This document shows, one piece after another, positions 1 through 64,000 of a DNA stretch of 64,000 bases. The notes beneath the pieces are model-generated. The model was not told the DNA's origin. It searched no databases and was given only the letters and a program-made list of their open reading frames with translations. The stretch covers positions 32,001 to 96,000 of IMG/VR virus record IMGVR_UViG_3300037461_001787; one strand, written 5' to 3'. A program made the position numbers and the translations under genes. This DNA comes from a virus. How positions within the stretch are numbered: the first letter of the stretch is position 1; each line of letters begins with the position of its first letter.

Positions 1-66
1 GTTGACCCTGAGCTGGCTCGCGCACATGCGGTTTGATGGTGGTGTGTTGGTTTCTGGAAAAATCTC

Positions 67-3000
67 ATGATTGGAGATAACTCCATGCTTCCTATGACTA
101 AATTTTATTTTCTGGAACCTGAACCATTGATCAAGGCCCTCATCAAGATGAAGCCGGTGAAGGTGCAGCTCGGAAGCTGGAAGGGCCTGACCATTATCGG
201 TATTGGTCCCAGAAACGGGAAGATTGTGGGATACCGTAGTGATGGTAAGCCGATTTACGCTGGTTCTCATGCGGCAGAGCAGTTGGCTCTGATACAAAAA
301 CAGAAACATACTTACACTCCCGCACAGCAAGATGTGGAACTGGTCAAGTGGCTCCAGGCGCTCGGGCTGCAGGGAGCGGTGGATGCCGAGCAGGTGCATC
401 TGAGCAAAGAGGGAGCTACGTTGCTCCAGACTGCGTTCGGCGTGACGCCAGCGGCCCTCGGAGGGGGGAAGTGGGGAATTGGCAAGGCTCTACTACTTCC
501 CCATCTAGGAGAGCCTCTAAAGCCCACTGAGGAGCATATCACGGGATGGGCAGCGCAGATGGCTGCGGGAGATCAGGATGAGGTTTTCCCACCTCTGCAC
601 ACTTTGAAGGAAATACCTGCGGGGAAGTTTGTTGGCTCGCACAACAATCAGTTATTTTTGGACAAGAGTGGGAAAAAATGGGTATTCAAGCCTGCTGACC
701 CTACTATTGCGCGAGCAGAGGAAGCTGCTTCCAGAATTGGGCGGTTGTTGCTGGGCGATCGCATTCCCGCTGCCAAATATGTGGATGTAAAAGGAAAAGG
801 TGGGGTGCTCATCCAAGTTCTGGATGGGGAAGTATGGCAGGAATCGTCGAGCCAACATTCTGACCCACAGTTGTCCTACCTCAAAAAATACGCAGAGCAG
901 GTGGTGCAGCATGAGGTGGTCGATTGGCTGATCAGCAATCATGATTCCCACGCGGGCAATTTTTTGGCCGACGGGGAGAAGCTGGTAGCCATCGACAAGG
1001 GGCAGGCGTGGAAATGGATTGGGAACGACGTGCTTGATCCAGCGTATAAAGGGAGCAACCCAAGTTATCAGATTTACAATAAATTTTGGGAATCGGTGAA
1101 GCAAGGGAAAATCGGATCCGTTGGGCTCGTGGAGGCCGTAGCTGAAATAGTGAATCGTGCGGAAAAGATTTCTCCCGAGCAGTTTGCGTTACTCGTAGCG
1201 CCTTATGTATCGACGTGGGCGGGTGGGAAGGATGCCGACCCACATGAGCGTCTCCAGAAAATGGTTTCCAGATTGACCAATCTGAGGGGCGACTTCGAGC
1301 AATTTTTGAGTTCACAGCTTCAAAAACCGATCACACTGCCTAAGCCATCGGCGGTGCAGGTGAATTGGGAAACTCCGCCGGTACAGCCGCTGGGGGAAGA
1401 AAAAGGCAAAGTAAAACAGGAAGAAAAGCCGCAACCAGTCCAATTGACGACGCCGGCGTCAGAAAGCCAGCCTATTTTGCAGGAAGTGGAACATACTCCC
1501 GTTTTGTCGGCCAAACCAGCGGCGGGTTGGCCGCTGACGAAAAAGGGTGCGAAGACGGTGCAGGTAACTGTGCACCATCCGGGGCAGGTGCCTCCCACCA
1601 ATTGGCCGGTGGGGACGCCTGGGCCCGCTATGCATCTTACTTGCGGGTACAAAGGGGCACAGTATTCCTTGATGGTCGGGGAGGACATGGCGGCCAAAAA
1701 GCCGATCTTCACGGTGACCTATCCCAACGGTGACAAGGCGGATTTTAGCTCGCTGAATGCGGCGGGAGATTCGCTCTATCTGTACAATAAGGGGCTGCCT
1801 CTCAATCTGACTGCGACTGAAAAAAAGAAGCAGGGCATCAGCTTGGGCAGCAAGGTCTTTCAGCTCAAGCTCTTTGAGCAGGAGTTGGCCGAAGCTTACG
1901 GGAAGAAGGATGAGCCGGTGCCGGTAGCGGTGGCGACCCCCGAGCAGCTCGAAGAGCAGAAGGTCATTGAGCCCGAGCAAAAGCAGGCGACGGCGTTCCA
2001 GTTGCTGACCACGGCACAGCCAGCAGGCACGGTGCTGTCGATGTACGATCCAGCGCTGCCGCAGGAAATCAAAGAGTTCACGCTTGCGCATTCTGGCAAG
2101 AATCAGTTGAGCGGGGATTGGGATTTGGCGCTCACGCCCGGGCAAGTGGTGATTGGCAAGCACGACTTTTTTGGAGGTCCGGTTATTTTTGCAGCGAGGT
2201 TGTCGAAGGAAGGTAAGCCCGAGCTTTGGGGTTGGTGGGAAGGAGTCGAAGGAGCGCCGCAAAGCGGCCAATGGACGGGCGCGACGGCAAAGGTATTTCT
2301 GGAAAGTTTGGGGTTGAAAAACAACCCCGCCCTCGCCCAGGCCAAAAAGGAGTACGAGCAGGCGGTGCAGTTTGAGGCATCGCATTCTGACCCTATTGGT
2401 TCTCCACCGGAGGTAGTGCTTCCAGAAAGCGCGACAGTTCCAGAAACCGCGCCGAAGTTCACGGCGGGACCGCTTGCCGCGGGCACAACGATCAAGGTCA
2501 AAAAGAAGGTTCCGGGATACGACAAAAAGCAAGAGGTCGTGCTCACCGCGCTGCAGAATGGCAAGTTGCTGGTCGAAATTCCGGGGCAAACCGCACAGAC
2601 TTTTGACACGCTTTCGGCTGCAAGTGATCATGTCTGGGTTGTCCAGAAAGGATACACCGATGCGGCAGATTACAAAGCTCAAAACAAAACTAATAAAGTA
2701 CCCTCTGGGGGTGGCTGGAAGTTTTGGGGTGTCAGCCCGACGACAGCAACAGTTGGCGCGGGCGATCAATTGGGTGCTGGAGCTGTTGCTGCTCCTTCTG
2801 TTGCTGGGAATGATCTACCAGCTGTTGGAGCACCCGCCGAAGTTCCTGCTCCCGCTGGAGTGACGGCTCCTGCAGAGGCCAAAGAACAGGGCAAGGTGCC
2901 GTTCGATGCAGCGCTTGGAGAAAAGGACAGCCAAGGCTGGCAGGCGTTGAAAACGGCAACTACCCCAGTGATTGATGCGTTGCCAGCGGGGACAGTTCTT

Positions 3001-6000
3001 TCGTGGCCGAGCCATTGGCAGCAGGGCAACCACCAGGCCAAGAAAGAGGCAGATGGAAGTTGGGACTTTATTGCTGCGCCAAATCCTCAGATGGGCCCAT
3101 TTGGGAAGCAGAGCCTGTATCAGCTAATGGCTTATGTGTCCCTATCCGTTGGCGCAGGCCATCAGCCAAAAGTGAAGTTGCCGAATGAAGGCGGGCCGGA
3201 AGCTGCATCGGCTGCGCCAGTTCCAGAAAATTCCAAAACTGATCAGCAGGTGGCGTTGGTTGACGAAATCAAAGCCACAGTGAAGTTGCCGAAGCTTGCC
3301 GGGTTTGCGAAAACGGTTCAGTTGTTGAAGGATTTGCCCACGGGGATTGTGCTCAAAACAAAATCTGGTCTGGGGACGCAGTACGCTTACGCGAAGCAAG
3401 CCGATGGCACATGGTCAGTGAGTGGAGGGCTTACGACCGTTTCTAATTTTGCGATCGATGCCCTTGCGGCTGATTTGTGTTCTGAGAATGAGATTATTGT
3501 CGGCTTCACCCCCGCAAGCGAAGTAGCGCCGATTGTCCCTACGAGCGAAAAGTTCCCCACGGACGTGGTGGCGTTTTCTCAGTTGCCTGTCGGGACCTTT
3601 GTGCAGACCAAGGCGAATTGGGGCGCGATCACCAAATGCGTCAAAAAAGCGGACAACAAATGGGAAGTCACATTGGAGTCGGGGGAGTCGGTTACCTATA
3701 GCGACATAGATGCGTTCAATCTGATCAGCGCTGAAAAACTCGACACCTGGAATCCGAAAGGAGAGGTTTTATTCGCGCCAGAACAGGCGCCAGAATCGGG
3801 AGCATCCAACTGGCCATGGTTTGAGCTGCATCCAACAGAGGCAGCGGATAAAGTCAAACCGGATATCGAGGTCGGGGGAAAAGAATTCGACAAGCTGCCA
3901 GCGGGTACCAAACTACAGTTTGTGAAAGACAAGGGGCCGAATGCCCTCTTGCACACGGCGGTCAAGAACGACGAAGGAAAATGGGATTTCAAGTTTGCGC
4001 AAGGCATCAAAGAGACCTATTCCAATGCTACTGCAAAGATTGCGCTGGGGCATCTCAATGTGGGCATCAAACAGCTTGTCGGGCCGGGCAAAGATTTCAT
4101 CGAAGATGCAGCACCAAAACTGCAAGAGCCTAGCATTCCCCCAGGTCTCATTGCGCAGGATGTAGCTACGTTGCCATTGAACATTGAGAATTTTGTGGGT
4201 TTGCCTGTTGGCACTGTGGTGACAACGATCAGCAACGTGGGCTCGGGTTGGACTTACACCAAAACCGATACGGATACGTGGCAAGCGCAAAAGGGGGGAA
4301 CAGAGAACATTTTTTCTGGAATGATGAGCGCAACAGTTTTGGGGGATCTGAAGGACGAGCACATATTGACGTATGCCATCCCGTCTGTTGCGGATATTCC
4401 TGCCCCAATAAAGCCAGCGCAGAAGCTCGATAGCATCGTGAGCTACGTTGATCTGCCCGCGGCGGCTAAAGACGCTATGACCACAGTGATGGTCAATATT
4501 TTGAAGCTTCACAAAAACGATCCGACCAAATTGCAAAAGCCGAGCAATTGGCCGGCATGGGTACCGCCCACAGCGCTTATTCTCAAGGGCGTGATCGACG
4601 GCAAAGAGTTTTACGTTTTCAATTCGGCGATGGCCAAGAACAATGACGGATCACCGGCTACGCAATTTCGGTTTTCTGTGGTGCTGCCTGACGGCACTTT
4701 TTACACTGGAGTGCCAGATGAAAAGCCAATAATGGCGTTGGGCTCAGCCATGCAGCAGGCCGGAATTACGGCCAGTGGCATCGACGCCAAAGAGGCGCTC
4801 GGGTTGTATGGGGTGAGTTTTCCAACGGGCGCGACTGAAGCGGATCCATTTCTGGAAAAAGCATCTCCTGCTATTGGAGCGCTCAAACCGGTAGAGCAGA
4901 TGACCCCGGTGGAGAAGACCGCCAAAGTCAAAACCAACATGCCGCTCAAGCAAGCGCTCAAAATGCATCCGGGCCTGCAAGCGGGAACGCTCAAGGTGAA
5001 AAAGGCCAAGGGCGATGCGATGTATATTTGCTTGGATGGTGTCGAAGGGGCCAGCACCAAACTCTACGAGGCTCTCCAGGACCTCGGAGTGGCGCACGCG
5101 ATCAAGAATGTTGGTGGCATGCCCAAAGTCAACGCGAAGGGAGCTTTTGTAACGGTCGATAATTGGGTGCTTGATCAGGAAGTGACTGTGGAGACCACAG
5201 CGCTTGCTGCTTCCAGCGCGCAACATGCGCCGAGCGATCCCAATTGGCAGACGATGCCCAAAGCCAAAACGAAAAAGCAAACCAAGAAGCAGATCCAAGC
5301 GGCCAAAGAAGCGCAGCAGAAAATGGCAGAGGCCAAGGCCAAGGCTGGGCAGATCAAGGTCTGGGGAGAGCAGCATCCGCCAGTTTCCGATGCGGCTGAT
5401 CTGCAGTTGCTCGCTTATGTGCAGAAGGGATTTGATCTGTTTGGTATCCCTTACGGGGCCATTGCTCGGGCGGGGGATGGCAAGATATTTCTGGGCCACA
5501 AGACGCACTACGAGCAGCTTAAGAAATATTTGACGCAGCTCGATGCGGGTAAGGGCGCGGTTGTCCCGGTGAAGACTCCGCTGGGCGAGATGCTCTCGGT
5601 TGATCTTGTGCAGCTCAAACCGGCGTTGGAGAGCTTTAGTGGTCTGCCGATTGGTGGAGTGATCAAAGGGCCTGACGGGAAGGAATACCCGGCTGGAACT
5701 ACGTTCCAGAAAAAGGTGGTTGAGACCACGGTTGCGCAGTTGTTACCCGGAGAGCCGGGATTCTACAAGATCATGGATCACAAGGCTGAGCCCAACGTGC
5801 TTGGCTTGATCAAGATTTCTGGGACTGGCGCTGAGCAGATCGCGCAAATGAAAGCGATGATCGAGAAGTATGGGCTCGAAGGGCCTTTCCCGGCGCCGAA
5901 GGCTTCAGAGAATTCCATTATTCACTCGGTCTACAAAAAGTCGCTCCAGAAAATCTGGAAGACGGAGGAAGTGCATACGCCTACGATCCCAGAACAGCCG

Positions 6001-7398
6001 GCGGCTTTTGTCGCGGGGTCGTTGCCTTATTCTGAGCCCGCGAAGGTATGGGAGGAAGTTGGGGATGGGTCGGGGGATCTGGCCAATATCGCGGCGGTGA
6101 AACCGGCGTTGTTTGGGACCGTGTTGCGCATTGGCGCTCCAGGACAATTGCGTGATTTCAGCATTCGCTACCGTAAGGTCAAGGATCCCAATGGCAAACT
6201 CTACTATGAGTTCACTGGGGATCTGGTGACCTTCAATGGGTTGGGTACGGGATTGCAGTCGGGGACGGTCAAATACGCTTCTACCCAAAACAAGCCGATG
6301 TCTGGGATGGGTGAGAAGAGCGTCAAGGTGATGGACTATGATCCAGCCACGGGCGTGCATACAGAAGCGTCGGAAATCGGTGACGGACCTGACCCCAAAG
6401 GATTTTTCGGTACCACTGAGGCGGGCAGCTCGATTTCAGTTGTTCCGCCCAGCAGTGATCAAGATACGCTAAAAAACACATTCCGCGTGCGTATCCCGAT
6501 GGAGTTGGATCCGGTGGCGGAGTTGCGTGCGGCATTCCAGAAAATGGGTAAGGACCCCGATTTGGTGCTGGCTTCGATCAACGAAGACAGTGATCGCATT
6601 TTCAAAAAATCAATGTACGTTCGCGGTCTGATGGGAGCCAGTGGGTGGAATGAGGGGCAATTTACTCCGGAATTGATGCACAATGAGGAGTGGCTGGATG
6701 CACAGCTTGCAAAATTCGGGGCCAAAACGAAGGCCCAGAATTTGAAAGTGGTGAAAACATTCGATAACCAAGTTTCTGTAGTGGCTGATGATGTCGAGAA
6801 GTTCGCAGAGTGGAACTTCGCCTATGTGGGCTCAAAGTCGTTTGGGACAACACTCCAGCTGCTACAAGGTTCAGGCTGGTCCAGTCGGCGCAATCGATTG
6901 CTGCACGGAGTCTGGAACGGGGGGCAATCAGCGGGAGCTGATTTCCAAAACGGAGGAGCGAAAGGGACTTTCTTTCGCATCGCAGGTCCGGGGAAAGCGA
7001 TGCTCAGTTCCTATGAATGCCAGATCATTGTTCATCCACGGGTATTTCAGCGCACTGACTGGTGGCGATACAACCAAGATGGGTACGGCAACACCTCCTC
7101 ATACAACCAACATGGTGCTCCTGTGGCTAAATCTCCCAAACGGTATACGGGGGAATTGTCCACCACCAATGAGATCATTTTTGAAGGCGGTGTTTCCGCC
7201 CAGGACATTGTTGCGGTGGTCGTAAACGATGACACGCAACGCGCGGACATGATAGCCAAGCTCCAGGCGGCGGGGATTACTGAGCTGAATGGAAAACCGC
7301 TCAACGAGGTAATTATTCCGGAAGTCTACAAAGGCGCCAATGCATATGGAAACTCGGATGCCTTTGCCAAGGTGTTGGGGATCAAGAAAGGCGAGTAG
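67..7398 (+). CDS. Giant polyvalent protein, probably head-packaged: HipA/PI3-PI4K-like kinase + 2 RAMA/DUF2924-like domains + 5 LPxGT repeats + C-terminal ART-like domain
   Basis: Kinase motifs GSH..KWVFKP, E-AAS, DWLISNHDSHAGN, IDKG (~590-1330). RAMA signature GPLAAG..FDTLSAAS..GGGWKFW (~2467-2733). C-terminal LLQGSGWSSR..GGAKGTFFR..YGN..NEIIF. Lies just upstream of the head genes. The real start may be ATG 85 (GGAG at 73-76). Confidence 0.75.
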   Translation: MIGDNSMLPMTKFYFLEPEPLIKALIKMKPVKVQLGSWKGLTIIGIGPRNGKIVGYRSDGKPIYAGSHAAEQLALIQKQKHTYTPAQQDVELVKWLQALGLQGAVDAEQVHLSKEGATLLQTAFGVTPAALGGGKWGIGKALLLPHLGEPLKPTEEHITGWAAQMAAGDQDEVFPPLHTLKEIPAGKFVGSHNNQLFLDKSGKKWVFKPADPTIARAEEAASRIGRLLLGDRIPAAKYVDVKGKGGVLIQVLDGEVWQESSSQHSDPQLSYLKKYAEQVVQHEVVDWLISNHDSHAGNFLADGEKLVAIDKGQAWKWIGNDVLDPAYKGSNPSYQIYNKFWESVKQGKIGSVGLVEAVAEIVNRAEKISPEQFALLVAPYVSTWAGGKDADPHERLQKMVSRLTNLRGDFEQFLSSQLQKPITLPKPSAVQVNWETPPVQPLGEEKGKVKQEEKPQPVQLTTPASESQPILQEVEHTPVLSAKPAAGWPLTKKGAKTVQVTVHHPGQVPPTNWPVGTPGPAMHLTCGYKGAQYSLMVGEDMAAKKPIFTVTYPNGDKADFSSLNAAGDSLYLYNKGLPLNLTATEKKKQGISLGSKVFQLKLFEQELAEAYGKKDEPVPVAVATPEQLEEQKVIEPEQKQATAFQLLTTAQPAGTVLSMYDPALPQEIKEFTLAHSGKNQLSGDWDLALTPGQVVIGKHDFFGGPVIFAARLSKEGKPELWGWWEGVEGAPQSGQWTGATAKVFLESLGLKNNPALAQAKKEYEQAVQFEASHSDPIGSPPEVVLPESATVPETAPKFTAGPLAAGTTIKVKKKVPGYDKKQEVVLTALQNGKLLVEIPGQTAQTFDTLSAASDHVWVVQKGYTDAADYKAQNKTNKVPSGGGWKFWGVSPTTATVGAGDQLGAGAVAAPSVAGNDLPAVGAPAEVPAPAGVTAPAEAKEQGKVPFDAALGEKDSQGWQALKTATTPVIDALPAGTVLSWPSHWQQGNHQAKKEADGSWDFIAAPNPQMGPFGKQSLYQLMAYVSLSVGAGHQPKVKLPNEGGPEAASAAPVPENSKTDQQVALVDEIKATVKLPKLAGFAKTVQLLKDLPTGIVLKTKSGLGTQYAYAKQADGTWSVSGGLTTVSNFAIDALAADLCSENEIIVGFTPASEVAPIVPTSEKFPTDVVAFSQLPVGTFVQTKANWGAITKCVKKADNKWEVTLESGESVTYSDIDAFNLISAEKLDTWNPKGEVLFAPEQAPESGASNWPWFELHPTEAADKVKPDIEVGGKEFDKLPAGTKLQFVKDKGPNALLHTAVKNDEGKWDFKFAQGIKETYSNATAKIALGHLNVGIKQLVGPGKDFIEDAAPKLQEPSIPPGLIAQDVATLPLNIENFVGLPVGTVVTTISNVGSGWTYTKTDTDTWQAQKGGTENIFSGMMSATVLGDLKDEHILTYAIPSVADIPAPIKPAQKLDSIVSYVDLPAAAKDAMTTVMVNILKLHKNDPTKLQKPSNWPAWVPPTALILKGVIDGKEFYVFNSAMAKNNDGSPATQFRFSVVLPDGTFYTGVPDEKPIMALGSAMQQAGITASGIDAKEALGLYGVSFPTGATEADPFLEKASPAIGALKPVEQMTPVEKTAKVKTNMPLKQALKMHPGLQAGTLKVKKAKGDAMYICLDGVEGASTKLYEALQDLGVAHAIKNVGGMPKVNAKGAFVTVDNWVLDQEVTVETTALAASSAQHAPSDPNWQTMPKAKTKKQTKKQIQAAKEAQQKMAEAKAKAGQIKVWGEQHPPVSDAADLQLLAYVQKGFDLFGIPYGAIARAGDGKIFLGHKTHYEQLKKYLTQLDAGKGAVVPVKTPLGEMLSVDLVQLKPALESFSGLPIGGVIKGPDGKEYPAGTTFQKKVVETTVAQLLPGEPGFYKIMDHKAEPNVLGLIKISGTGAEQIAQMKAMIEKYGLEGPFPAPKASENSIIHSVYKKSLQKIWKTEEVHTPTIPEQPAAFVAGSLPYSEPAKVWEEVGDGSGDLANIAAVKPALFGTVLRIGAPGQLRDFSIRYRKVKDPNGKLYYEFTGDLVTFNGLGTGLQSGTVKYASTQNKPMSGMGEKSVKVMDYDPATGVHTEASEIGDGPDPKGFFGTTEAGSSISVVPPSSDQDTLKNTFRVRIPMELDPVAELRAAFQKMGKDPDLVLASINEDSDRIFKKSMYVRGLMGASGWNEGQFTPELMHNEEWLDAQLAKFGAKTKAQNLKVVKTFDNQVSVVADDVEKFAEWNFAYVGSKSFGTTLQLLQGSGWSSRRNRLLHGVWNGGQSAGADFQNGGAKGTFFRIAGPGKAMLSSYECQIIVHPRVFQRTDWWRYNQDGYGNTSSYNQHGAPVAKSPKRYTGELSTTNEIIFEGGVSAQDIVAVVVNDDTQRADMIAKLQAAGITELNGKPLNEVIIPEVYKGANAYGNSDAFAKVLGIKKGE

Positions 7399-9863: not shown

Positions 9864-11294
9864 ATGTTCGGATTGAACCAGGTGAGCTGGAAAGACTATG
9901 AGGGCGTCGAAGGTTTTGGCGCCGCTACCCAGCAGGATGTGGACGAGTTGAACAAAGCGCTGACCGCCGGTCAGGCCATCCAGGGCCCGGGAGGCACTGC
10001 GGGGGATGGCTTCGCGCTGCGCGTCGAATCGCTGGAACGGACCCTGAAAAACACCACGTACAAGATGGAGCACATTCGGTTCTGGAAGGCCTTGCCCAAG
10101 TTGCCAGCTTACAACACGGTCGAAGAGCACAATGAGATGAGCCAGTACGGGGCGAACCCGGATGCGGGATTCATCTCGGAAGGCGATCTGCCCGAAGAGG
10201 ACGATTCGATCTACACCCGTAAGTACGCAGTGGTGAAGTACCTCGGCACCACGCGGAAGGTCACCCACGTCATGTCGCTGATCAAGCCTGCCCACGGCAA
10301 CGTGGTCGCGCAAGAGACGGTCAACGGAACCATGCACCTGCTGCGCGTGATGGAGCGGGCCCTGTTCTACGGAGACAGCAGCTTGTCCGCTCTCCAGTTC
10401 GACGGCTTCGAGAAGTTGATGAAGGATTTGTGCCCGACAACCAACGTCATCGATCTGCGTGGTTTGCCGTTGAGTGAGGACGTGCTCACCGATTCAGCGC
10501 TGACCATTCAGGACGCGCCCAACTACGGCACGCCCACCCATCTGTATCTCAATCCCAAGGTCAAGACGGATCTGGTCAAGACTTTCTTCCCCAAAGAACG
10601 CCACGACACGTTCCAGAAACAGGGTGGATTCGTCGGTCTCGACATCAAGGGCTTCACGTCCCCTGCGGGTGACGTGCTCTTCGAACCCGATGTGTTCATC
10701 ACCGATGGTGGCGGCGCGAATGCCAATGCGGTTGGCGATGCGTCAAAGCGTCCGGGTTCGCCGTCTTTCACGACCAATCCGACCACGCCGGCTGAGACCA
10801 CCGGGAAGTTCACGGCGGACGATGCCGGTGACTATCGCTATGCGGTGGTCGCGGTGAATCGCTACGGGCGTTCGGCTGCGGTGGCTTACGGTTCCGCAGT
10901 GACCGCTCACACGGGAGATAAGGTCACTTTTGGTCTGACCCCTTCGAGCGCGACAACGGGCTGGTACGAGATCTATCGGACGCCGAAGAACGGCGCGATC
11001 GGCACAGCACGCCTTATCATGCGCGTTCCCAATGCGGCAGGCGCGGGTGAGACCACCATCAACGATCTCAACTGGAACCTGCCGGGCTGCACAAGCGCGT
11101 TCTTGTTCCAGCTCAATCTGGAGAGCATGAGCTTCAAACAGCTCGCTCCCATGGTCAAAATTCCGTTGGCGACCATCGACAGCTCGATTCGCTGGATGCA
11201 GCTGCTCTATGGCGTGCCTGTGCTCTACACCCCGGGCAAGAACGTCCTGATCCGCAATATCGGAAGAGCCGCAGGATACGTGGGCGCTCCGTAA
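9864..11294 (+). CDS. Major capsid protein (SPO1/Twort/phage K Cps-like)
   Basis: ELNKALTAG..ALRVESLE..F..EG..KYLGTTRKV..ERALFYGD..QFDG pattern typical of Herelleviridae capsids; strong AGGAGG RBS. Confidence 0.92.
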   Translation: MFGLNQVSWKDYEGVEGFGAATQQDVDELNKALTAGQAIQGPGGTAGDGFALRVESLERTLKNTTYKMEHIRFWKALPKLPAYNTVEEHNEMSQYGANPDAGFISEGDLPEEDDSIYTRKYAVVKYLGTTRKVTHVMSLIKPAHGNVVAQETVNGTMHLLRVMERALFYGDSSLSALQFDGFEKLMKDLCPTTNVIDLRGLPLSEDVLTDSALTIQDAPNYGTPTHLYLNPKVKTDLVKTFFPKERHDTFQKQGGFVGLDIKGFTSPAGDVLFEPDVFITDGGGANANAVGDASKRPGSPSFTTNPTTPAETTGKFTADDAGDYRYAVVAVNRYGRSAAVAYGSAVTAHTGDKVTFGLTPSSATTGWYEIYRTPKNGAIGTARLIMRVPNAAGAGETTINDLNWNLPGCTSAFLFQLNLESMSFKQLAPMVKIPLATIDSSIRWMQLLYGVPVLYTPGKNVLIRNIGRAAGYVGAP

Positions 11295-11323: not shown

Positions 11324-11374
11324 GGAAGGGGTACCGGGTTTTGCGGAAATGCTGCTTTTCCTGGTCCCCTTTCC
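11324..11374 (+). terminator. Putative hairpin/terminator after the MCP gene
   Basis: Imperfect inverted repeat GGAAGGGG-ACCGGG ... CCTGGT-CCCCTTTCC. Confidence 0.4.
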
Positions 11375-11398
11375 AGATTTCCAGAAAGTGAGAAAAGC

Positions 11399-12035: not shown

Positions 12036-12335
12036 ATGAAGTTGCAAAATATACTCCCGCACATGGCCAACAGCTCGGTGCTGGTCAACGGGCGCACGTA
12101 TGAGATTGATGGGCACGGCGTGATCTTGGGCGATGTGGTGCTGGAAGATGCCCAAAAGTTGCTTGTCAATCGTGCTGCGTGGCGGGTGGTAGTCGAGCGT
12201 CAAGCGGTGGCTGAACCGATAGCGGTACCGCCGGCGCCTGGCCCAGACCCCGTGCTGGAAGGGAAGGAGCCAGCTGAGCCTCTGCCGGTTCCAGAAATCA
12301 AACCCGCGGGAGGATTGCTACGTAGAAAAAAGTAG
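12036..12335 (+). CDS. Hypothetical protein with Pro-rich tail
   Basis: ATG after the AGGAGAGCGAGC leader, in the frame of ORF 11814-12335. Confidence 0.65.
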   Translation: MKLQNILPHMANSSVLVNGRTYEIDGHGVILGDVVLEDAQKLLVNRAAWRVVVERQAVAEPIAVPPAPGPDPVLEGKEPAEPLPVPEIKPAGGLLRRKK

Positions 12336-12382
12336 CGTTCCAGAAAAATCCAGAAAGCCCTTGAGGCTGCTAGGAGCATAGC

Positions 12383-48528: not shown

Positions 48529-48869
48529 AAAATGCACAAACTTTGTGCATTTTGCCTGTCTGTTTTGCACCAAGTTTGTGCATTTTTGCGTCCATTTTTG
48601 GGGCAAATGGGGGGCATTTGCCAACAGGGGAGGTTTTATTAAATGATTTTGACCAATGTTTTGTGGACCCGGGGGATCTCTTGCTTTTTCACCCGAAACG
48701 TATTCAAAGGTAGTACCTACTCCCATAGTAATAGATTTTTTATTTATTGATATTACTTCATAAATTGGAAATTTTTTTTCTGGAATTTTTCTGGAATATA
48801 GGGTGCTCTAACCGAAAAATAAAACCCTGTGGAAAAAGTTTTGTCATGCGCACAACATTTGTGCATTTT
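48529..48869. promoter_or_regulatory. Three GCAC-N7-GTGC palindromes (NtrC/Fis-type operator-like)
   Basis: TGCACAAACTTTGTGCA (48533-49), TGCACCAAGTTTGTGCA (48566-82), CGCACAACATTTGTGCA (48849-65). Confidence 0.6.
48724..48800. other. AT-rich tract (candidate unwinding element)
   Basis: Strongly A/T-rich stretch in a GC-rich genome, ending in two tandem TTTTCTGGAA. Confidence 0.5.
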
Positions 48870-52646: not shown

Positions 52647-52752
52647 ATTTCCGGTCTCTTTTTTTGGCTGGCGACTTAAATCTGATGCCGGGAACGTGAA
52701 GCATGTGGTATCGTGGCGGCGAACTTCCACGAGTAGCGCTGACCACGCACCA

Positions 52753-52789
52753 GGGCTCCGAGTTACCCGCTCGGAGCCCATTTTATTTT
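52753..52789 (+). terminator. Intrinsic terminator/attenuator
   Basis: Perfect 10-bp stem GGGCTCCGAG/CTCGGAGCCC plus ATTTTATTTT, directly before an RBS. Confidence 0.75.
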
Positions 52790-52804
52790 CTGGAAGGAGA
52801 CGCC

Positions 52805-56361: not shown

Positions 56362-56619
56362 ATGACCAAGAAAAGTTTGTTGGGGGCCCAGGAGGATCGG
56401 ATCAAAACTGACCTCCGGCTGCCTCCGGAGTTGCTGGATCAGGTTGAGCAGATCACCACGGCGTTGCAGATACCCAAAAACGCTTTTTTCGTCTTGGCGG
56501 CGTCGTTGCTGGTGTTGCAGTTATCGCCTTTGGTGCGGGTCAAGCAGCGCAAGGCGCTGGTAATGGCGGTTCAGGATCTTTTCCAGAAAGTGCTGGGAGA
56601 GATTGCAAAGACCTTATAA
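56362..56619 (+). CDS. Ribbon-helix-helix DNA-binding protein
   Basis: IKTDLRLPPELLDQVE..IPKNAF; AGGAGAGCGAGC leader. Confidence 0.7.
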   Translation: MTKKSLLGAQEDRIKTDLRLPPELLDQVEQITTALQIPKNAFFVLAASLLVLQLSPLVRVKQRKALVMAVQDLFQKVLGEIAKTL

Positions 56620-56722
56620 TCATGGGTTAGAAGTTGCCCTTCCAGATTTTGCGTCAATTACATTTTCTACTGTTGACATTTCCGGCGTAGAGCCGTATTC
56701 CAGATATGGGTGTGTGGGAAAA

Positions 56723-57637
56723 ATGATGCAAGTGATCAAGCATGAGATCCCGGGAACGGGCATTTACCTCGATCGAGTCGAGGGTTTTGTTCATCCGCTT
56801 ATCCCAGAAGGCATAGGTGAATATTGCTTTCGCCGTGATCTGGTGGAGGAGATTGCGTATTGCCTGGAGACGGCTACGCACTGCCTCTTAGTTGGAGATG
56901 CGGGGACGGGGAAGAGTTCGATCGTTGAGCAGCTCGCCTTTCAGCTCAATCGGCCGCTGCGGCGGCTGAACCTTCATGGTGAGTCGGATACCACGGTGCT
57001 GCTCGGGCGCGACTATCCTTCGATCGCTGAGGATGGCACTAGGATTTTGCAGTTTCGCCGGGGACCGCTGCCCGAGGCGGTGGCTCTCGGGCACTGGATT
57101 TTGCTCGATGAGATCGACGCGGCGCTGCAACCGGTTCTCTTTTGCCTGCAACAGTTGCTCGAAGAGGGCGGGAAGATCGTGCTGGAGGACGTGGAGGGCA
57201 CGGTGATCCGCCCGCATCCGGCTTTTCGGTTTTTTGCGACCGCCAATTCGGTTGGGATCGCTAGCCGGCATAAATTGTTGTACACCGGGACGATGGCGCG
57301 GATGAATGAGGCTACTTTGGATCGGTTTGGTGTGGTGGTGCACGTTGAGTCGATGTCGGCGGCGTTGGAGCAAGAGGTTATTCGCAAACGGGTGCCTGCT
57401 TTGGATGCGGATTTCATCGAGGCTATTGTGCGCATTGCTGGAGAGGCGCGAAAAGATTTGACCAACGACAAGATCGCCTGCACGTTTTCCACGCGAAGGT
57501 GTTTGCAGTGGGCGCGGGCGATGACCCGCTTTCATCCGTTGCGCGCGGCCAAACTGACCGTTTTGAACAAATTGGCGGAGGATGACTACCGGGTGCTGGA
57601 GGGGGTTGTGCAGCGCTATTTTGGAAAGGAAAAATGA
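56723..57637 (+). CDS. MoxR/CobS-like AAA+ ATPase
   Basis: GDAGTGKS; LLDEID; HPAFRFFATAN; LDRF; STR. Confidence 0.88.
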   Translation: MMQVIKHEIPGTGIYLDRVEGFVHPLIPEGIGEYCFRRDLVEEIAYCLETATHCLLVGDAGTGKSSIVEQLAFQLNRPLRRLNLHGESDTTVLLGRDYPSIAEDGTRILQFRRGPLPEAVALGHWILLDEIDAALQPVLFCLQQLLEEGGKIVLEDVEGTVIRPHPAFRFFATANSVGIASRHKLLYTGTMARMNEATLDRFGVVVHVESMSAALEQEVIRKRVPALDADFIEAIVRIAGEARKDLTNDKIACTFSTRRCLQWARAMTRFHPLRAAKLTVLNKLAEDDYRVLEGVVQRYFGKEK

Positions 57638-57638
57638 C

Positions 57639-58190
57639 GTGGACGATACTGTGTATCGATTGGAATATTATTCGGTGGTAGTGGAGGAGGATTCGAAAAC
57701 TCCAGTGTTTGTTACGCTGGGTGATACTGTGGACGAAATCAAGGAATGGGCAACGCTTCAGATGACTGCGATGTTGGCTACGGCAATGGAGGAAAAGGTG
57801 ATTTTGCCGTTCGACGCATCCAAGATGCAGTTGTGGCCGCGGGCAAAGTTTCGTCGGGAGATTGGGCAGCTTGATTTGCATACTGCGGAGTACGCTGAAT
57901 GGTACGGCCGTTCGATAGTGGCGTATTTGACATTTCGGGTGGGCAAAGAGGTCGAGTGGCTCAGCGCAGCGCTGCGTGCTGGGGAGCACAAAGAAGCTAC
58001 AAAATTTGGGGATTCGCTGCGAAAGAGTTGGTTTCATCTGTTCGCCGCGTTGGAATCCTGTGATGTGCGGCCGGTTATTATCGAGCATGAGCCGGATGCG
58101 CGGTGTGCTTCTTGCTCTGAAGTGCATGATTGCTCCAAGGGGTTGGAGTATATGTTGCACCTGGATCCGGCAAAGAAAATTCTGAACTGA
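57639..58190 (+). CDS. Hypothetical protein with C-terminal CxxC..C
   Basis: AAGGA RBS with GTG start; sits between the AAA+ and VWA genes. Confidence 0.55.
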   Translation: MDDTVYRLEYYSVVVEEDSKTPVFVTLGDTVDEIKEWATLQMTAMLATAMEEKVILPFDASKMQLWPRAKFRREIGQLDLHTAEYAEWYGRSIVAYLTFRVGKEVEWLSAALRAGEHKEATKFGDSLRKSWFHLFAALESCDVRPVIIEHEPDARCASCSEVHDCSKGLEYMLHLDPAKKILN

Positions 58191-59932
58191 TGCCCTTGTC
58201 GTTTACAGAAGCTGCTTTGGAATCCCGGAGTGAACGCATCGCGCGGATGATGACCCGCCAGTACGGGGTGCGGGTGCGCATTGAGGGTTCGCTTGCTTAT
58301 GTGGATTCTTGCACGCTGGAAATTGTGTTGCCCAATTTTAGTGATGCGCATTTAGGAGCATTGGGCAAGGCTTTTGACGGATTTTTAGACCATGAATGCG
58401 CGCATCTCCTGTTCACAAAGTTTGACTGCGTGGCAGCGTTGCGCGAGCCCACACGCGGAATCTGGAATGCGTTGGAAGATGCTTGGATCGAGCGGCGCAT
58501 GTCGCAGGAGTATCCCGGGTGCGGGGAAAATCTAGGCGTGTTGGATCAATTGATTGGCGAGAAGGTGCGGGAGGAATGGGAAATGGTGCCCCATGGGGCA
58601 CGTTTTTTGCACATGGTTGGTTGTTATGCGCGAAAAGGGCGCTGCCCAAAAGAGTTGGAATTGGATGCTGTGGTCCAGAAATGGGTGGAGGCGGCGCGGG
58701 CAGAGCTAGAGCGGGCTTCCAGGATCGCTTCGACGGCCGAGGCCGCAAAATTGGCCGAGGCTATTGTCGCGGCGATATGCTGGAAGGCGCTTGCGCCTCC
58801 TCCATCAGCTGTTGGGGGGATGGAGGGGATGCCTCTGTCGCTGATGGGGGAAGGGGAGATGGATGCTTTGATGGATTTGGCTACGGGTACGGGCCCGCGA
58901 TGCGATGCTGAGTGGCTGGTCAATTCTATCGGAGAGCGGGTAGCGGCAGAGAGCGCAATCGGGGAGAAAGGGAGTGGGCCAGCGGAGTACAACGTGTTTT
59001 CTACTGCTTACGATTTTGATCGGGTTTTTGATAGGGAGGAGCGGCTCGAATGGAGCGCGGAATATCGAGCGCTACGTGAGAAGGTCGCGGACTATATCGG
59101 CACCATGGCAGCGAGCTTAGAGCTGGCTCTGGCCTCCCAGTCTCAGGTGCGTTGGATTGGGGGACAGCGCCGGGGGCGGCGATGGGATCGGCGGGCGTTA
59201 CCGCGTTGGTTTTTGGGGGGAGACGATGATCGTGTTTTTGCCGTAAAAGAGCAGGGGACGGCGCTCGATACGGCGGTCACGTTGCTGTGGGATTGTTCGG
59301 GGTCAATGGGCTCTGTCCGGCACGTCACTTCAAAGTCTGTGTTAGCGCGTTTGGCGGCTGTGGCATTTCACGAGGCGTTGTTGAAGGCGGGAGTGCCGCA
59401 TGAGGTGCTTGGCTTCAATACCTCTGCCAGTCCACCGGCAGAGTTGGTGGACCGGGTGCGTCGAGTGATTGCTGCGGGGGGGAATGTTTCTGCGTACAGT
59501 AGGCTCGATGAGATCGATAATCGGATGGTGCTTGTACCTTTTTCTGGAACGGATGGGCGCGCAATTTGTGCGATTGATGGGCATGGCGCCAATCGGGATG
59601 GAGAGTGTGTGCTTTGGGCTGCGCGGCGTCTTGCTGCGCGCCCGGAGAGTCGGCGGATTCTCATCGTGGGTTCGGATGGCCTACCCCAAGGGGCGATTTA
59701 CAACGATACCGAATGCCGCTATCTCAAGCAGGTGGTGGAACGGATTTCGGCTGCGGGGATTGAGACGATTGGTATTGGGATTCAGAGCAAAGCTGTGAAG
59801 GAATTTTATCCCCGTTCGGTGGTGCTGCGGGATATTTCAGCGTTGCCGGGCGTGATTATGCGAGAGTTAGTCACCCTTTTGACAAGTGAGGCACATCGTG
59901 GAAGTGCAAAAGGAGCAGGTGGAGTATCTTGA
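58190..59932 (+). CDS. CobT-like protein: HExxH zincin-like domain + VWA domain
   Basis: DHECAH..NALED..IE; MIDAS DCSGSM; SDG.P. Confidence 0.85.
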   Translation: MPLSFTEAALESRSERIARMMTRQYGVRVRIEGSLAYVDSCTLEIVLPNFSDAHLGALGKAFDGFLDHECAHLLFTKFDCVAALREPTRGIWNALEDAWIERRMSQEYPGCGENLGVLDQLIGEKVREEWEMVPHGARFLHMVGCYARKGRCPKELELDAVVQKWVEAARAELERASRIASTAEAAKLAEAIVAAICWKALAPPPSAVGGMEGMPLSLMGEGEMDALMDLATGTGPRCDAEWLVNSIGERVAAESAIGEKGSGPAEYNVFSTAYDFDRVFDREERLEWSAEYRALREKVADYIGTMAASLELALASQSQVRWIGGQRRGRRWDRRALPRWFLGGDDDRVFAVKEQGTALDTAVTLLWDCSGSMGSVRHVTSKSVLARLAAVAFHEALLKAGVPHEVLGFNTSASPPAELVDRVRRVIAAGGNVSAYSRLDEIDNRMVLVPFSGTDGRAICAIDGHGANRDGECVLWAARRLAARPESRRILIVGSDGLPQGAIYNDTECRYLKQVVERISAAGIETIGIGIQSKAVKEFYPRSVVLRDISALPGVIMRELVTLLTSEAHRGSAKGAGGVS

Positions 59933-60434: not shown

Positions 60435-60513
60435 AAAAATCTGGATTTCTGGACTTCGCTGCGATAGGTCTGAATGCGGGCAGTCCAGAAAAATTCCAGA
60501 AAGGATCTGAGTC

Positions 60514-61587
60514 ATGAGCATGCCAAGTTGTTACGGTCAGGTGTGGGAAGGGGTTGCGGGATCCATTTGCGTGGATCAGGGATGCGGGGTGATCGATGAC
60601 TGTCTCATGCGTTTCGCCAGTGGGGTGCTAGTGGACTGGCAGCGGCAGCTGGGTGAGTCGGCCAGCGTTGAGCAGCTCTCCCAGGCCATGGCAGTTAAGC
60701 CAGAGGCGATTCAGCGGGCGCTTGAATTCCAGAAAACTGCAGGGATTATCCCGTTTGTCAAATCAGTTGTGATCCCAGCTCCGGTAGAGCAGGTACTGCC
60801 GCAGGCTTCGCCTGCAATGGTAGAGGTGGCGGTTACTGAAGTATCGGAGGTGGGGTGCCCGTCTGAAGAGCAACAGCAATCTGTTGTGGATGCTCCATTG
60901 GCGGAGGTGGTCGAGATGCCCGTGACCGCGGAAGCAACGCGGGCGCTAGAGGAGGTAGCGGGGATGGTCATTCGGAAGAAAAATAAGGGCAGGGCAAAAG
61001 CCGCGCCCAAGGGCAAAATGCCCAGGGGTACGGGGACGAAAAAGGGGGCGGCGTCAACTGTTACCCGCCGCCCCAAGTCGGCCGGGCCTGCGAAGAGTGC
61101 CAGGGTACCGGCCAAGGGCAACAAGGCGTGTGTGCGCCTTGTTGCGGCACAGGGCGCCAGCAAAAAACGGGGGCGCAAGCCGGCACAGCCGGAACAGGGT
61201 GCGCACAAGAAGTTGGAGCGCAAGTCAGCGGCGGAAGAGCAGAGCCGGCAGTGGGGCCGATCGGCAGCGATGAATCGCAGTCGGTGGCAGCGGGAGCGGG
61301 AGCGGTCATCTCTCATTGCGCAGTTGAAGCCCGGCATGAAGTTGAAGCGACTTTGGGAGGGCAAAACTCTGGAAGTCGTCTGTGTGCGGGACGGGTACCG
61401 GTACCAGGGAGATATCTATCCGACGCTTTACAGCGTGGTGATGGCGATTGTGGGGACAGTTCCCAGAAAGAAACAGAAGAAGGCGGACGGCACAATCCCT
61501 GGGGGTACGCGCAATCTAACAAACTGGTCAGCGCCGAAATTTTTCAGACTCCCCTGGATCATCGGGGGCAAGAAGGGCGCGACGTAA
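60514..61587 (+). CDS. DUF2924/RAMA-like protein with N-terminal Cys cluster and K-rich linker
   Basis: LKPGMKLKRLWEGK..V..DGYRYQG..YPTLYSV...IVG..WSAPKFFRL. Confidence 0.75.
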   Translation: MSMPSCYGQVWEGVAGSICVDQGCGVIDDCLMRFASGVLVDWQRQLGESASVEQLSQAMAVKPEAIQRALEFQKTAGIIPFVKSVVIPAPVEQVLPQASPAMVEVAVTEVSEVGCPSEEQQQSVVDAPLAEVVEMPVTAEATRALEEVAGMVIRKKNKGRAKAAPKGKMPRGTGTKKGAASTVTRRPKSAGPAKSARVPAKGNKACVRLVAAQGASKKRGRKPAQPEQGAHKKLERKSAAEEQSRQWGRSAAMNRSRWQRERERSSLIAQLKPGMKLKRLWEGKTLEVVCVRDGYRYQGDIYPTLYSVVMAIVGTVPRKKQKKADGTIPGGTRNLTNWSAPKFFRLPWIIGGKKGAT

Positions 61588-61592
61588 ATGCT

Positions 61593-61877: not shown

Positions 61878-61892
61878 ATTAGGCGGTGCGGG

Positions 61893-64000
61893 ATGGCGGT
61901 GCAGACAACCGGTTTTCACGATTACGTGTTGGAGCATCGCCGTCCCGACTGTCATTTGATCATGACGGGAGATCGCTTTGAGTGGATGATTCGTTTTCTG
62001 GAGGCAAGCCCAATATTGGTTTATGACACTGAGACAAGCGGGCTTGATTGGTTTCGCGATGCCCGGGCGTGCGGGGTAGCTTTTGGCGGAATTTCTGGAA
62101 CGGAGGCCCATCAGTTTTACGTGCCTTTCCGCCATCGCACTGGCGAGCAGCAATTGGACATCGAGCGCATCTCGCCGGCGATTCGTCAGCTGCTCGCCAG
62201 TGCGAAGTTTAAGATCGGTCATCATCTGAAGTTTGATAAGCACATTTCGCATCGGGAGGGTTGGAAAATTGCACCTCCAGTCTATGACACGATGGTTGCG
62301 GCCAAGCTTTACGATGAGAATCGTTTTATCGCGCTCAAGACCCGAGCGGTCGAGGATCTGGGTCGTGAGGATGCCAAGGTTGGCGAGCGCAGAGTGGCGA
62401 TGATGGTCGCGCAGCTCGCCAAGCAGCAGAAGATGGGTATCTCTGAGTACCGCTCGCGGTACGGTTACAGTCAGGTGCCGATTTGGCTGCTCGGGGAGTA
62501 CGCTTGCGGGGATGTGGAGTTTACCCGGTTGCTTTGGCAGTTCTACGAGGATCCGCAGCGCTCCATCTCCCAGCGTTTCCCGCGCATCTGGGCCACTGAG
62601 ATGGACTTGATCGATGTGCTTTGCGATGCCGAGGAGGCGGGGATCGCCATCGATGTGGAGTATCTATCGCGGTTGCGCCAGGAGCTGCGCGATCACCTTG
62701 CGCAGATCGAGGCTGAGATCAGGTTGTTGTTTGATGGGCGCAAGTTAGAATTGGGATCGGATGCGGCGGTGCGTCGGTTTCTGTTGGAGGAGTTACGTTG
62801 TCCGCTGACCAAGCTCACCCGCGGGGGTAAGAGCGGGGAGAAGCAGTTTGCGGTGGACAAGGAGGTGTTGGCTGAGTTTGCTCATGTGCACCCGGTGGTC
62901 CCGCGTATCGTGGCTTGGCGAGAAGCGGAAAAGTTGGCGAACACGTACACCTCGTCGATTCTGGATCGGATTGATTCCAGAAATTACCTGCATCCGGAGT
63001 TTCAGCAGGTGGGAACTACTTCGGGTAGGCTATCTTGTAGTTCACCTAATTTCCAGAATCAGCCGGTGGACGATGACGAACGGGCCAAGCGCTATTCTGG
63101 AAAGTCTCTGGAAGAGGGCGGGGTTGATCCTTGGTCTATTCGTCGGGCTTACGTGGTGGGAAGGCCGGGGTGTGCTAGATTGTTTTTTGATTACTGCCTT
63201 GCGCCGGAGACGCTGGTGGAGACGGTTGCGGGTAAGCGCCCGTTGGGCGACCTGCAAGCGGGAGACAAAGTTTATACCTATCGCGATGGGAAAATTGCGT
63301 GGGGGGCGGTGACGCGCAGCGTGCGAGTGGGATTTCTCCCGGCGTACCGGGTGACGTTTGACAATGGGGAGAGTGTGGTGGCGTCGGCGGATCATAGGTG
63401 GCCGATTCGGGTGCGTAGACCGGGGAAAGGGGGGCCGCTGGCGGAAGAGATTCGGACTACCAGCGAGTTGCAAGTTGGGGATCGGATGATTCCGATGAAG
63501 CGGGTGCAAGCTAATTACGTCCACCTCTATTCTCGGGGAGCTACGTTGTACACCAAAGAGCATTTGTTGGTGGCAGAAGCGGTATTAGGGCCTTGCCCTG
63601 CGGATTACGTGGTGCACCACATAGATGAAGATAAAAGCAACAATCATTTTTCTAATTTGAAATATGTGCCGCGGGGAGCGCATTTCAGTGTTCATGGGAG
63701 AGCGAATTACCAAAAGCAAGATCACATAAAGCGGCTGGCGGCTTTACGGGTGGGGTTGGCGGATCGGCGTAACTATGCTGGGGCGGGGAATCCCAATTTT
63801 GGGAAGCAGAAAGGCGCGCCAGTGGAGTGCGCTTGCTGCGGGAAAGTCTTTTATCGTCCGCCCAGTCATGCGGCTAAGTTTTGTTCGCAAAAATGCTATT
63901 TCCAAGCAAAGCGCGACGGGAATAATCATCGGGTGGTGGCGATTGAATTTCTTGGGGATCGGGAAATGGCCGCGATCACGGTAGAGCCTGATCATAATTT
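61893..64000 (+). CDS. polA: Family A DNA polymerase with 3'-5' exonuclease, intein-containing, truncated by the window end
   Basis: Manual translation: YDTETSGL (ExoI), GHHLKFD, YACGD, GTTSGRLSCSSPNFQN, IRRAY..FFDY (motif A). Absent from the ORF track because it has no stop in the window. Confidence 0.92.
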   Translation, partial: MAVQTTGFHDYVLEHRRPDCHLIMTGDRFEWMIRFLEASPILVYDTETSGLDWFRDARACGVAFGGISGTEAHQFYVPFRHRTGEQQLDIERISPAIRQLLASAKFKIGHHLKFDKHISHREGWKIAPPVYDTMVAAKLYDENRFIALKTRAVEDLGREDAKVGERRVAMMVAQLAKQQKMGISEYRSRYGYSQVPIWLLGEYACGDVEFTRLLWQFYEDPQRSISQRFPRIWATEMDLIDVLCDAEEAGIAIDVEYLSRLRQELRDHLAQIEAEIRLLFDGRKLELGSDAAVRRFLLEELRCPLTKLTRGGKSGEKQFAVDKEVLAEFAHVHPVVPRIVAWREAEKLANTYTSSILDRIDSRNYLHPEFQQVGTTSGRLSCSSPNFQNQPVDDDERAKRYSGKSLEEGGVDPWSIRRAYVVGRPGCARLFFDYCLAPETLVETVAGKRPLGDLQAGDKVYTYRDGKIAWGAVTRSVRVGFLPAYRVTFDNGESVVASADHRWPIRVRRPGKGGPLAEEIRTTSELQVGDRMIPMKRVQANYVHLYSRGATLYTKEHLLVAEAVLGPCPADYVVHHIDEDKSNNHFSNLKYVPRGAHFSVHGRANYQKQDHIKRLAALRVGLADRRNYAGAGNPNFGKQKGAPVECACCGKVFYRPPSHAAKFCSQKCYFQAKRDGNNHRVVAIEFLGDREMAAITVEPDHN
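63195..64000 (+). mobile_element. Intein with HNH endonuclease in polymerase motif A (partial)
   Basis: DY|CLAPETLV; block B ASADHRW; HLLVAEAVLG..VVHHIDEDKSNN..SNL; CACC..CSQKC; VVAIE..ITVEPDHN at the window end. Confidence 0.88.

Follow-up and report, generated by a model that had tools for sequence, protein, structure and literature searches.

Results

Locus and genome

This study concerns a short DNA word, T-TCCAGA-A-A, that is scattered in many copies over a stretch of 64,000 nucleotides from the virus record IMGVR_UViG_3300037461_001787. This stretch, which we call the window, represents bases 32,001-96,000 of a 109,277-bp record, 55.4% G+C, that is rated complete by CheckV. The present genome is designated G000, related viral genomes and loci carry G- and L-numbers, and coordinates are those of the window unless marked as genome coordinates. 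G000 is a large tailed phage with nearly all genes on the plus strand, the open reading frames (ORFs) of which alone span 92%. The major capsid protein (9864-11294) shares 39% identity with capsids of SPO1/SP-10-type Bacillus phages, and a T4-type terminase and portal are also encoded. The replication and recombination genes comprise an intein-bearing helicase, a DnaB-type helicase, a primase, a DNA polymerase A with an intein, an SSB-like protein, RecA, an SbcC/Rad50-like ATPase, RuvC, a clamp-like protein, and a CbbQ-like AAA protein with a CobT-type von Willebrand A (vWA) partner. Megablast against phage records returned no close cultured relative of G000, and no tRNA genes were found in the genome.

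Abundance and placement of the word

In the window, the 8-mer TTCTGGAA/TTCCAGAA occurs 75 times, compared with 2.36 +/- 1.5 copies in dinucleotide shuffles (shuffle maximum 7), and the 9-mer TTCCAGAAA has 62 exact copies. The 7-mer TCTGGAA/TTCCAGA, of which an initial annotation of this DNA had tallied about 100 copies, is counted 106 times where uniform composition predicts about 8, and the single sites named there at 7948, 10080, 10611, 11379, 12338, 48778/48789 and 60494 are all real. The whole genome contains 305 TCCAGA cores, 135 8-mers (3-9 expected) and 112 9-mers. The logo of these sites reads t-TCCAGA-a-a(-a/t), and one-mismatch variants stay at background for word positions 3-7. Because the flanks carry no information, the repeated unit is a short word rather than a longer repeat or a mobile element. 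The related palindromes TTCCGGAA and TTCTAGAA, which had been described as not enriched, indeed number only 2 and 1 in the window and 4 and 1 in the genome; the word of G000 is non-palindromic.

The 9-mer lies 55 times on the plus and 57 times on the minus strand, evenly spread at about 1 per kb, and no orientation switch is found along G000. The gaps between sites have a coefficient of variation of 0.95-1.05, as in random (Poisson-like) placement. Such random gaps rule out regular spacing or helical phasing, and no pair distance is preferred, aside from a slight surplus of direct pairs 7-11 bp apart. Equal strand use together with random spacing and the lack of a preferred pair distance is in keeping with an orientation-free, single-site use of the word. 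Most copies (87%) are inside genes. The tandem sites pointed out earlier do exist (Table 1), but intergenic density is only about 1.7-2 times coding density, and a simple consensus scan shows no sigma-70-like promoter at the head-operon position around 7948 where one had been proposed.

Table 1. Word sites and candidate reader genes in the window
Feature	Coordinates	Strand	Description
Dispersed word set T-TCCAGA-A-A	52..63102	both	75 8-mers, 62 9-mers, 106 7-mers; mostly in genes
Two overlapping-phase cores	11372..11388	+	TCCAGAttTCCAGAAAG; 27 and 19 bp upstream of gene start 11399, after the major capsid gene
Three same-orientation cores	12290..12354	+	93, 44 and 34 bp upstream of gene start 12383
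Tandem word pair	48778..48796	-	11 bp apart; within a listed 51-residue ORF (48747-48902), possibly no real gene
Cluster of four cores, 79-bp gap upstream of the DUF2924 gene	60440..60503	.	TCTGGAttTCTGGA, spacer of about 30 bp, TCCAGAaaaatTCCAGAaagga; last core overlaps the ribosome-binding site
Candidate reader 1, 357-residue protein	60514..61587	+	N-terminal 4-Cys part, acidic linker, Lys/Ala/Pro-rich histone-H1-like stretch, C-terminal DUF2924 (RAMA-like)
Candidate reader 2, gene 78, about 138 residues	52805..53218 (listed ORF 52703-53221)	+	Lies between the two helicase genes (intein-bearing and DnaB-type)

Reading frames and codon shuffles

All six reading frames are used by the word, as FQK, xPEx, xSRx, FLE, xSGx and xFWx, and the rarest frames are those that need a Trp or an AGA codon. 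When synonymous codons were shuffled within genes while the proteins were held fixed, 119 observed 8-mers compared with 16.2 +/- 3.3 (z = 31) and 98 observed 9-mers with 7.1 +/- 2.5 (z = 36), while codon permutation gave means of 3.9 and 1.0, respectively (z > 50). Observed over expected is thus far from 1 in codon-preserving shuffles (z = 31-36), which bears out the view of the initial annotation that the word is no codon or peptide artefact. Since the excess persists in these shuffles, the word is selected or driven as DNA. What speaks for an artefact of coding or of a repeated element, such as codon-pair bias, a repeated peptide or a small mobile repeat, is that part of the excess lies at the amino-acid level, as seen from a synonymous-shuffle mean (16) above the codon-permutation mean (3.9), and that unrelated viral contigs hold the word in tandem coding repeats. 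The proteins of G000 have even been adjusted slightly to accommodate the word. Nevertheless, six frames with differing peptides, z values above 30 at fixed proteins, uninformative flanks and an enrichment that extends to intergenic DNA rule such an artefact out, and we regard its probability as negligible. Among the unrelated viral contigs listed with several copies, the top three by copy number carry the word in tandem or near-identical repeats and not genome-wide, and they were set aside.

Site-by-site comparison with a relative

G001, a 96.8-kb IMG/VR contig of 58.5% G+C with 105 copies of the 9-mer, is colinear with G000 at 72% nucleotide identity. Of 64 gaplessly aligned 9-mer sites of G000, 48 (75%) are identical in G001, compared with 7% of random aligned 9-mers; in a protein-guided alignment, the core is kept at 58 of 90 8-mer sites. 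Such retention, far above that of the control 9-mers, indicates purifying selection on individual sites. Where a site is not conserved, it mostly differs at 4-6 of 9 positions, meaning that sites are either kept whole or absent. The word is found at 1.46 per kb in G000 DNA without a counterpart in G001, at 1.15 per kb in shared DNA and at 1.08 per kb in the most conserved core. These alignments indicate that selection acts on the DNA word itself.

Spellings among related phages

We compared 48 related viral loci from a capsid-profile scan and 40 from a helicase-profile scan. At least nine IMG/VR contigs of 97-113 kb belong to this wider group, and Logan assemblies contain further members. Related lineages, which are phages of 44-68% G+C, each have their own strongest word (Table 2), and at 44% G+C, in L007, TCCAGA is still present at 3.2 per kb. 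In the deeper clade, (C)GACAAT stands 10-20 times over expectation in L377, L378, L382, L384 and L386. L385 shows TTCCGCA 29 times versus 3.6. A comparable word is absent in G010, G013, L008, L019, L021, L353/354 and L363. The excess of CTCGAG and CTGCAG in G010 and G013 (3-4 times expected) is read as probable codon-pair usage (Leu-Glu, Leu-Gln) and not as a dialect.

Table 2. Strongest words of related phage lineages (observed vs expected where available)
Genomes	G+C	Word	Copies
G000, G001-G004, G014	55-60%	TTCCAGAAA / TCCAGAAA	112 (G000) and 105 (G001) 9-mers
G008	63%	(G/C)TCCAGAA	514 cores vs about 80
G011	64%	TCCAGC(AA)	310 vs about 104, weaker
G012	66%	TTTCCAGACTTT (12-mer)	TTTCCAG 48 vs 2.3
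G006	64%	TCCGGA and TCCAGA	319 vs 41, 128 vs 53
G007	67%	TTCCGGAA	155 vs 1 (364 TCCGGA)
G009	67%	AGATCCA(A)	208 vs 43
Deeper clade, helicase 38-46% identical	52-68%	(C)GACAAT	e.g. CGACAAT 58 vs 3.3

A link to TCCGGA, raised in the initial annotation, is seen in G006 and G007, which hold TCCGGA/TTCCGGAA at 319-364 sites versus about 30-50 expected, some of them at positions homologous to TCCAGA in G000. In protein-guided alignments, TCCAGA of G000 stands opposite TCCGGA at 7 of 131 aligned sites in G006 and 3 of 96 in G007 (0.3% for control positions), and opposite TCCAGA at 14 of 95 sites in G008, 9 of 131 in G006 and 3 of 96 in G007, whereas control frequencies overall are 0.04-0.3% per position. 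By these alignments, some sites predate the split of the dialects.

Avoided palindromes

A second feature of these genomes is a purge of 6-bp palindromes. In G000, G001 and G006-G011, the sites CTCGAG, GGATCC, CTGCAG, AGATCT and TCTAGA are reduced, in a lineage-specific manner, to 0-2 copies where 10-85 are expected. CTCGAG is missing from G000, G001, G006, G007 and G009, GGATCC from G001 and G006-G008, CTGCAG from G001, G006, G008 and G009 (one copy in G007), and AGATCT from four genomes, G009 among them. TCTAGA has 0-2 copies in every genome compared (G000, 1 vs 10 expected). TCCGGA itself is found 24 times in G000 versus 34 expected, and is absent from G009 (44 expected) and G010 (25 expected). 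We also note that ACCGGT is absent from G009 and AGATCC from G008 (76 expected). Such a purge points to unmodified DNA under heavy restriction pressure, and it is a readable record of the restriction enzymes that each lineage has met.

The purge probably explains, as judged from these site counts, the lopsided spelling in G000. TTCCAGAA is the sole non-palindromic member of TTCYRGAA, both palindromic members of which are not enriched in G000, and AGATCC of G009 relates likewise to GGATCC and AGATCT. The palindrome TTCCGGAA, seen by its reader as a pair of TTCY half-sites, may be the ancestral or alternative form. With two such similar half-sites, a reader would accept either spelling, and restriction escape would spare only the mixed form TTCC-AGAA, which would fall on both strands with equal chance; the extra A on the AGAA side could offset the weaker half-site. 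We infer this account of the asymmetry from half-sites and restriction escape. As a separate observation, G009 is the single one of five searched genomes with an N6/N4 DNA methyltransferase (G009:C1:20604-21200) and the only one of G001 and G006-G009 that does not purge GGATCC (47 vs 37 expected); its enzyme may be a BamHI-type protective methylase.

Candidate reader genes

Two genes of the replication module are each weakly associated with the word. One encodes the 357-residue protein in Table 1, which matches Pfam PF11149 at residues 251-315 (E = 5.4e-9, 36.9 bits vs a cut-off of 31.2). According to the Aravind group, DUF2924 of Pfam partly matches the RAMA DNA-binding domain (PMC11342252). 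The DUF2924 profile finds 224 cluster representatives at E <= 0.001, and in most of the 150 matches listed the domain is C-terminal. An AlphaFold2 model of the RAMA-like domain, with a predicted local distance difference test score (pLDDT) of 88, has its best VIA-align match, at a low score, in the C-terminal domain of CcrM (6pbd_B, Z 5.1, root-mean-square deviation 3.9 over 71 residues), followed by mouse MPND (7ydt_A, Z 4.9, also low), while Foldseek returned nothing at E <= 0.001. The gene sits immediately upstream of that for DNA polymerase A in each of the seven related genomes covering the region. It is preceded by two inverted word pairs in G000 and G001, with the same layout and a diverged spacer, and by three word sites in G008; among genes with word clusters upstream, it is the only one that recurs (G000, G001 and G008, not G006/G007). 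A wider scan of DUF2924 loci, which used a narrowed alignment, added only two new loci, neither with the word. This DUF2924/H1-like protein is a plausible candidate DNA binder. In the word-less G010, the DUF2924/AT-hook gene is split by a frameshift (L082:9768-10884), the first frame holding the N-terminal 4-Cys part and five KRGRGRPPK AT-hook repeats and the other frame the RAMA-like domain; this may be either a real pseudogene or an assembly error.

The other candidate, gene 78, is found in every genome examined with a TCC(A/G)G word and is missing at the syntenic spot in G009 and G010. In ten genomes it appeared to track the word perfectly. Among 40 helicase-anchored loci, it is present with the word in 13, present without it in 13, absent with the word in 1 and absent without it in 13, and so at best it is necessary but not sufficient. 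The absences are in G009, G010, L362 and the deepest clade (helicase 38-46% identical). Gene 78 belongs to no known family and has no protein-atlas match at or above 0.9, and its model (pLDDT 77) has no match in the PDB (best Foldseek E = 0.12, best VIA-align Z = 3.4). None of 30 proteins, small or of unknown function, that were scanned against Pfam or PHROGs gave a helix-turn-helix, ribbon-helix-helix, ParB or methylase match.

Other genes

The inteins lie in two replication genes, at 50106-52646 and 61893-63998 (to 64712 in genome terms); that of the helicase combines Hint and LAGLIDADG homing-endonuclease domains and that of DNA polymerase A combines Hint and HNH. The helicases of G009 and G010 appear to be without an intein (514 and 505 residues, vs 846 in G000). 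The CbbQ/MoxR-type AAA ATPase (56603-57637) and the CobT-type vWA protein (58130-59932) lie within the replication module, and only the closest relatives, G001 and G014, share both. A probable tail-fibre protein (14255-15862) has a weak YadA-stalk match (E = 4e-5, under the Pfam cut-off), which hints faintly at a Gram-negative host. Adjacent to the head genes, a protein of 2443 residues (67-7398) has no Pfam match at E <= 0.01, and this search does not confirm earlier proposals of RAMA, DUF2924 and kinase domains in it; its homologues are found only in G001, G008 and G006 (29-45% identity). Outside the window, the early region encodes an ADP-ribosylglycohydrolase (PF03747, E = 5.6e-63; genome 2879-3931, L015:2879-3931) near a deoxynucleoside kinase.

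Discussion

Few cases of selection on DNA itself are as clear as iterated short words, such as the highly iterated palindrome HIP1, uptake sequences and Chi. In this study we find such a word in a phage genome, at a density far beyond what composition or coding can account for, with single sites conserved in a relative and with different spellings in related lineages. We give about an even chance to the reading that a sequence-specific factor docks on each copy of the word, singly and in either orientation, and this factor is probably encoded by the phage. The word would then be a recognition site on double-stranded DNA that each lineage keeps at about 1 per kb, and binding would set the entire phage chromosome apart from other DNA. 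Word and reader may drift together, leaving one dialect per lineage. Our preferred guess is that the RAMA/H1-like protein of the replication module nucleates a histone-like coat or organizes replicating DNA; perhaps this protein is the reader, although we hold that particular assignment to be doubtful. In its broadest form, which we offer tentatively and consider less than an even prospect, the proposal is that a family of myoviruses of about 110 kb runs a co-evolving word-and-reader system, in which a 6-9-bp word in about 100-500 copies within the phage's own genes tells phage from host DNA for coating, protection or replication, with its spelling shaped by restriction escape.

Several observations weigh against a phage-encoded docking factor and its proposed details. 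The fold matches of the RAMA-like domain are weak (Z of about 5), and homologues of the DUF2924 protein and gene 78 both occur in relatives without the word (L345, L346, L353, L354, L363, L351 and L364). The association of gene 78 with the word (Fisher p = 0.013) is confounded by phylogeny, and the account of the asymmetry by half-sites and restriction escape draws on 10 homologous sites and on composition tables. Moreover, the reader may be host-encoded, or the word may reflect a host repair bias, and the patchy spread of the trait over the capsid phylogeny, with L019 lacking the word at 75% capsid identity, would also fit dependence on the host.

A host-determined signature, in which a host machine reads the word (Chi-like for an enzyme of the RecBCD/AddAB type, or uptake- or HIP-like) and the dialects mirror the hosts, is an alternative that we take seriously but think unlikely. 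Besides the patchy distribution, it is consistent with the shift of the dialects with G+C, with a density of about 1 per kb in both orientations and all frames, which are the statistics of uptake sequences, and with the heavy palindrome purge, which shows exposure to host nucleases. Chi enrichment is documented in phages, and in lambdoid phages it goes with the lack of a Rec module (Zheng et al. 2025, PMC12315714), whereas G000 has RecA, an SbcC-like protein and RuvC. Balanced strands (55:57) without polarity and palindromic dialects would be odd for Chi, and the same TCCAG core is shared by phages of 44-66% G+C. We further examined 311 bacterial genomes, which represent less than 1% of species and may not include the host of the phage, and none of them is enriched for the word. 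Five bacterial genomes hold 62-182 copies in 1.4-7.4 Mb, or 0.01-0.07 per kb, which is 15-100 times rarer than in the phage, and more than one close word pair was found neither in 301 genomes drawn evenly from one phylum nor in five further genomes. A pair scan of bacterial contigs gave chance-like single matches among those listed; a Gracilibacteria locus (36% G+C) has 12 copies in 8 kb, and the same genome 98 copies in 1.4 Mb. In the two pair scans, of bacterial and of viral contigs, the sole genome-wide carrier among the matches listed is the relative G001. The word is therefore not a host signature as far as sampled.

A purely mutational origin, by host methylation of TCCGGA-like sites and very-short-patch-type repair or deamination of methylated C, without any binding function, is in our judgment improbable. 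Elhai's model for HIP1 is said to be of this kind, a drive by methylation plus very-short-patch-type repair. The word is one transition away from TCCGGA, which is abundant in relatives and in part homologous in position, in G007 the transition neighbor TTCGGA/TCCGAA is down to 0.44 of expectation, and HIP1 likewise has alternate dialects (PMC4390886). A deamination or methylation-coupled origin had been suggested by the initial annotation, together with a search for a methyltransferase elsewhere in the genome, and this origin is not supported. We searched six frames of G000 and G006-G009 with PF00145 and PF01555, a scope that leaves aside other methyltransferase families and host enzymes; no C5 methyltransferase (PF00145) is found in the five genomes, and no N6/N4 methyltransferase (PF01555) in G000, G006, G007 or G008, with one in G009. 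In the genomes with TCCAGA, the 18 one-off neighbors of this core stand at 0.5-1.5 of expectation, except for TCTAGA and a general two-fold excess of TCCAGN, and in G000, G001 and G008 the only depleted neighbor is TCTAGA, which contains the generally avoided CTAG. Decay of TCCGGA cannot yield the asymmetric flank with two extra A on one side, nor does it explain why the non-palindromic form is conserved in place at 75% versus 7%, and AGATCCA, GACAAT and TTTCCAGACTTT are not near one kind of methylatable palindrome. More improbable still, in our view, is a replication signal that marks lagging-strand primer starts or fork reloading, on both strands since replication would be recombination-driven without a fixed direction. 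About one site per 2 kb per strand is near the length of bacterial Okazaki fragments, a primase, a DnaB-type helicase and recombination proteins are all encoded by the phage, and gene 78, whose presence follows the TCC(A/G)G words, sits between two helicases beside the primase. Known primases of the DnaG/T7 type recognize three to five bases, whereas the word is a sharp 9-mer; it shows no strand switch along the genome such as a primase site would have at an origin, and it does not follow the primase gene, since word-less G010 has both primase and DnaB genes. Half of the gene 78 carriers (13 of 26) are likewise without the word.

The docking of a probably phage-encoded factor would, if correct, have wider meaning. 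If the reader is encoded by the phage, this system would show a virus marking its own chromosome without base modification, and restriction pressure reshaping a binding site. If a word-and-reader system operates in the family, it would be the viral equivalent of HIP1 or of uptake sequences, and its reader could be discovered. The case is compact, with apparently complete genomes of about 110 kb and at least seven spellings or none, and is workable by comparative genomics and simple binding assays. Such words are also strong lineage markers for sorting metagenomic phage contigs.

The initial annotation had likened the word to HIP1, Chi and uptake sequences. The statistics of HIP1 and uptake sequences fit, whereas Chi fits poorly. 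What HIP1 does has been debated for decades. HIP1 (GCGATCGC) of cyanobacteria is similar in being a sharp short word that occurs about once per kb, both within and outside genes, in numbers beyond composition models, all of which is found for the word of G000, and its lineages have also swapped or lost the word (Elhai 2015, PMC4390886). Among the relatives, a palindromic word of the HIP1 type is found only in G006 and G007, which even carry a true palindrome, TCCGGA/TTCCGGAA. HIPs differ in residing in cellular chromosomes with a cognate methyltransferase (PMC4390886), whereas the word described here is in a phage without a matching one. The word of G000 also differs in being non-palindromic and in lacking a Vsr-like signature. 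The uptake signal sequences (USS) of Haemophilus and the DNA uptake sequences (DUS) of Neisseria consist of a non-palindromic core of 9-10 bp and a weak A/T-rich flank, and they have dialects by family; they belong to competent bacteria and are spread by biased uptake plus recombination. They share with the word of G000 the density of about 1 per kb, equal orientations, use of all frames with a preference for cheap peptides, conserved positions among relatives and dialects. They differ in that the word is not enriched in the sampled bacteria and that inverted terminator pairs are no feature of G000. Noc sites of Bacillus (ATTTCCCGGGAAAT) are 14-16 bp long and number about 70 per 4 Mb. In Noc/ParB-type systems, a protein nucleates on many dispersed sites and spreads, thereby marking one DNA molecule, and the half-site flavor TTCC..GGAA of Noc sites recalls the palindromic dialect; Noc sites are longer and sparser, and no ParB-like protein is seen among the proteins scanned against Pfam or PHROGs. 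The 17-bp dyad repeats of Cluster O and the stoperators of Cluster A mycobacteriophages are likewise scattered, phage-specific repeats, partly in genes and presumed to be docking sites, but they have 13-17 bp and about 30 copies per genome, mostly intergenic or near gene starts (PMC4351075), in contrast to 6-9 bp and 112-135 copies in G000 (up to 514 cores in G008), most of them genic. Chi-enriched phages resemble G000 in having a genome loaded with a short word that is read by a DNA-processing machine, an adaptation to breakage and recombination-dependent growth (PMC12315714), whereas Chi is polar, a polarity that the strands of G000 do not show, and is the host's own word. Thus, the statistics of the word match those of uptake sequences and HIP1, yet it sits in a virus with family-wide dialects.

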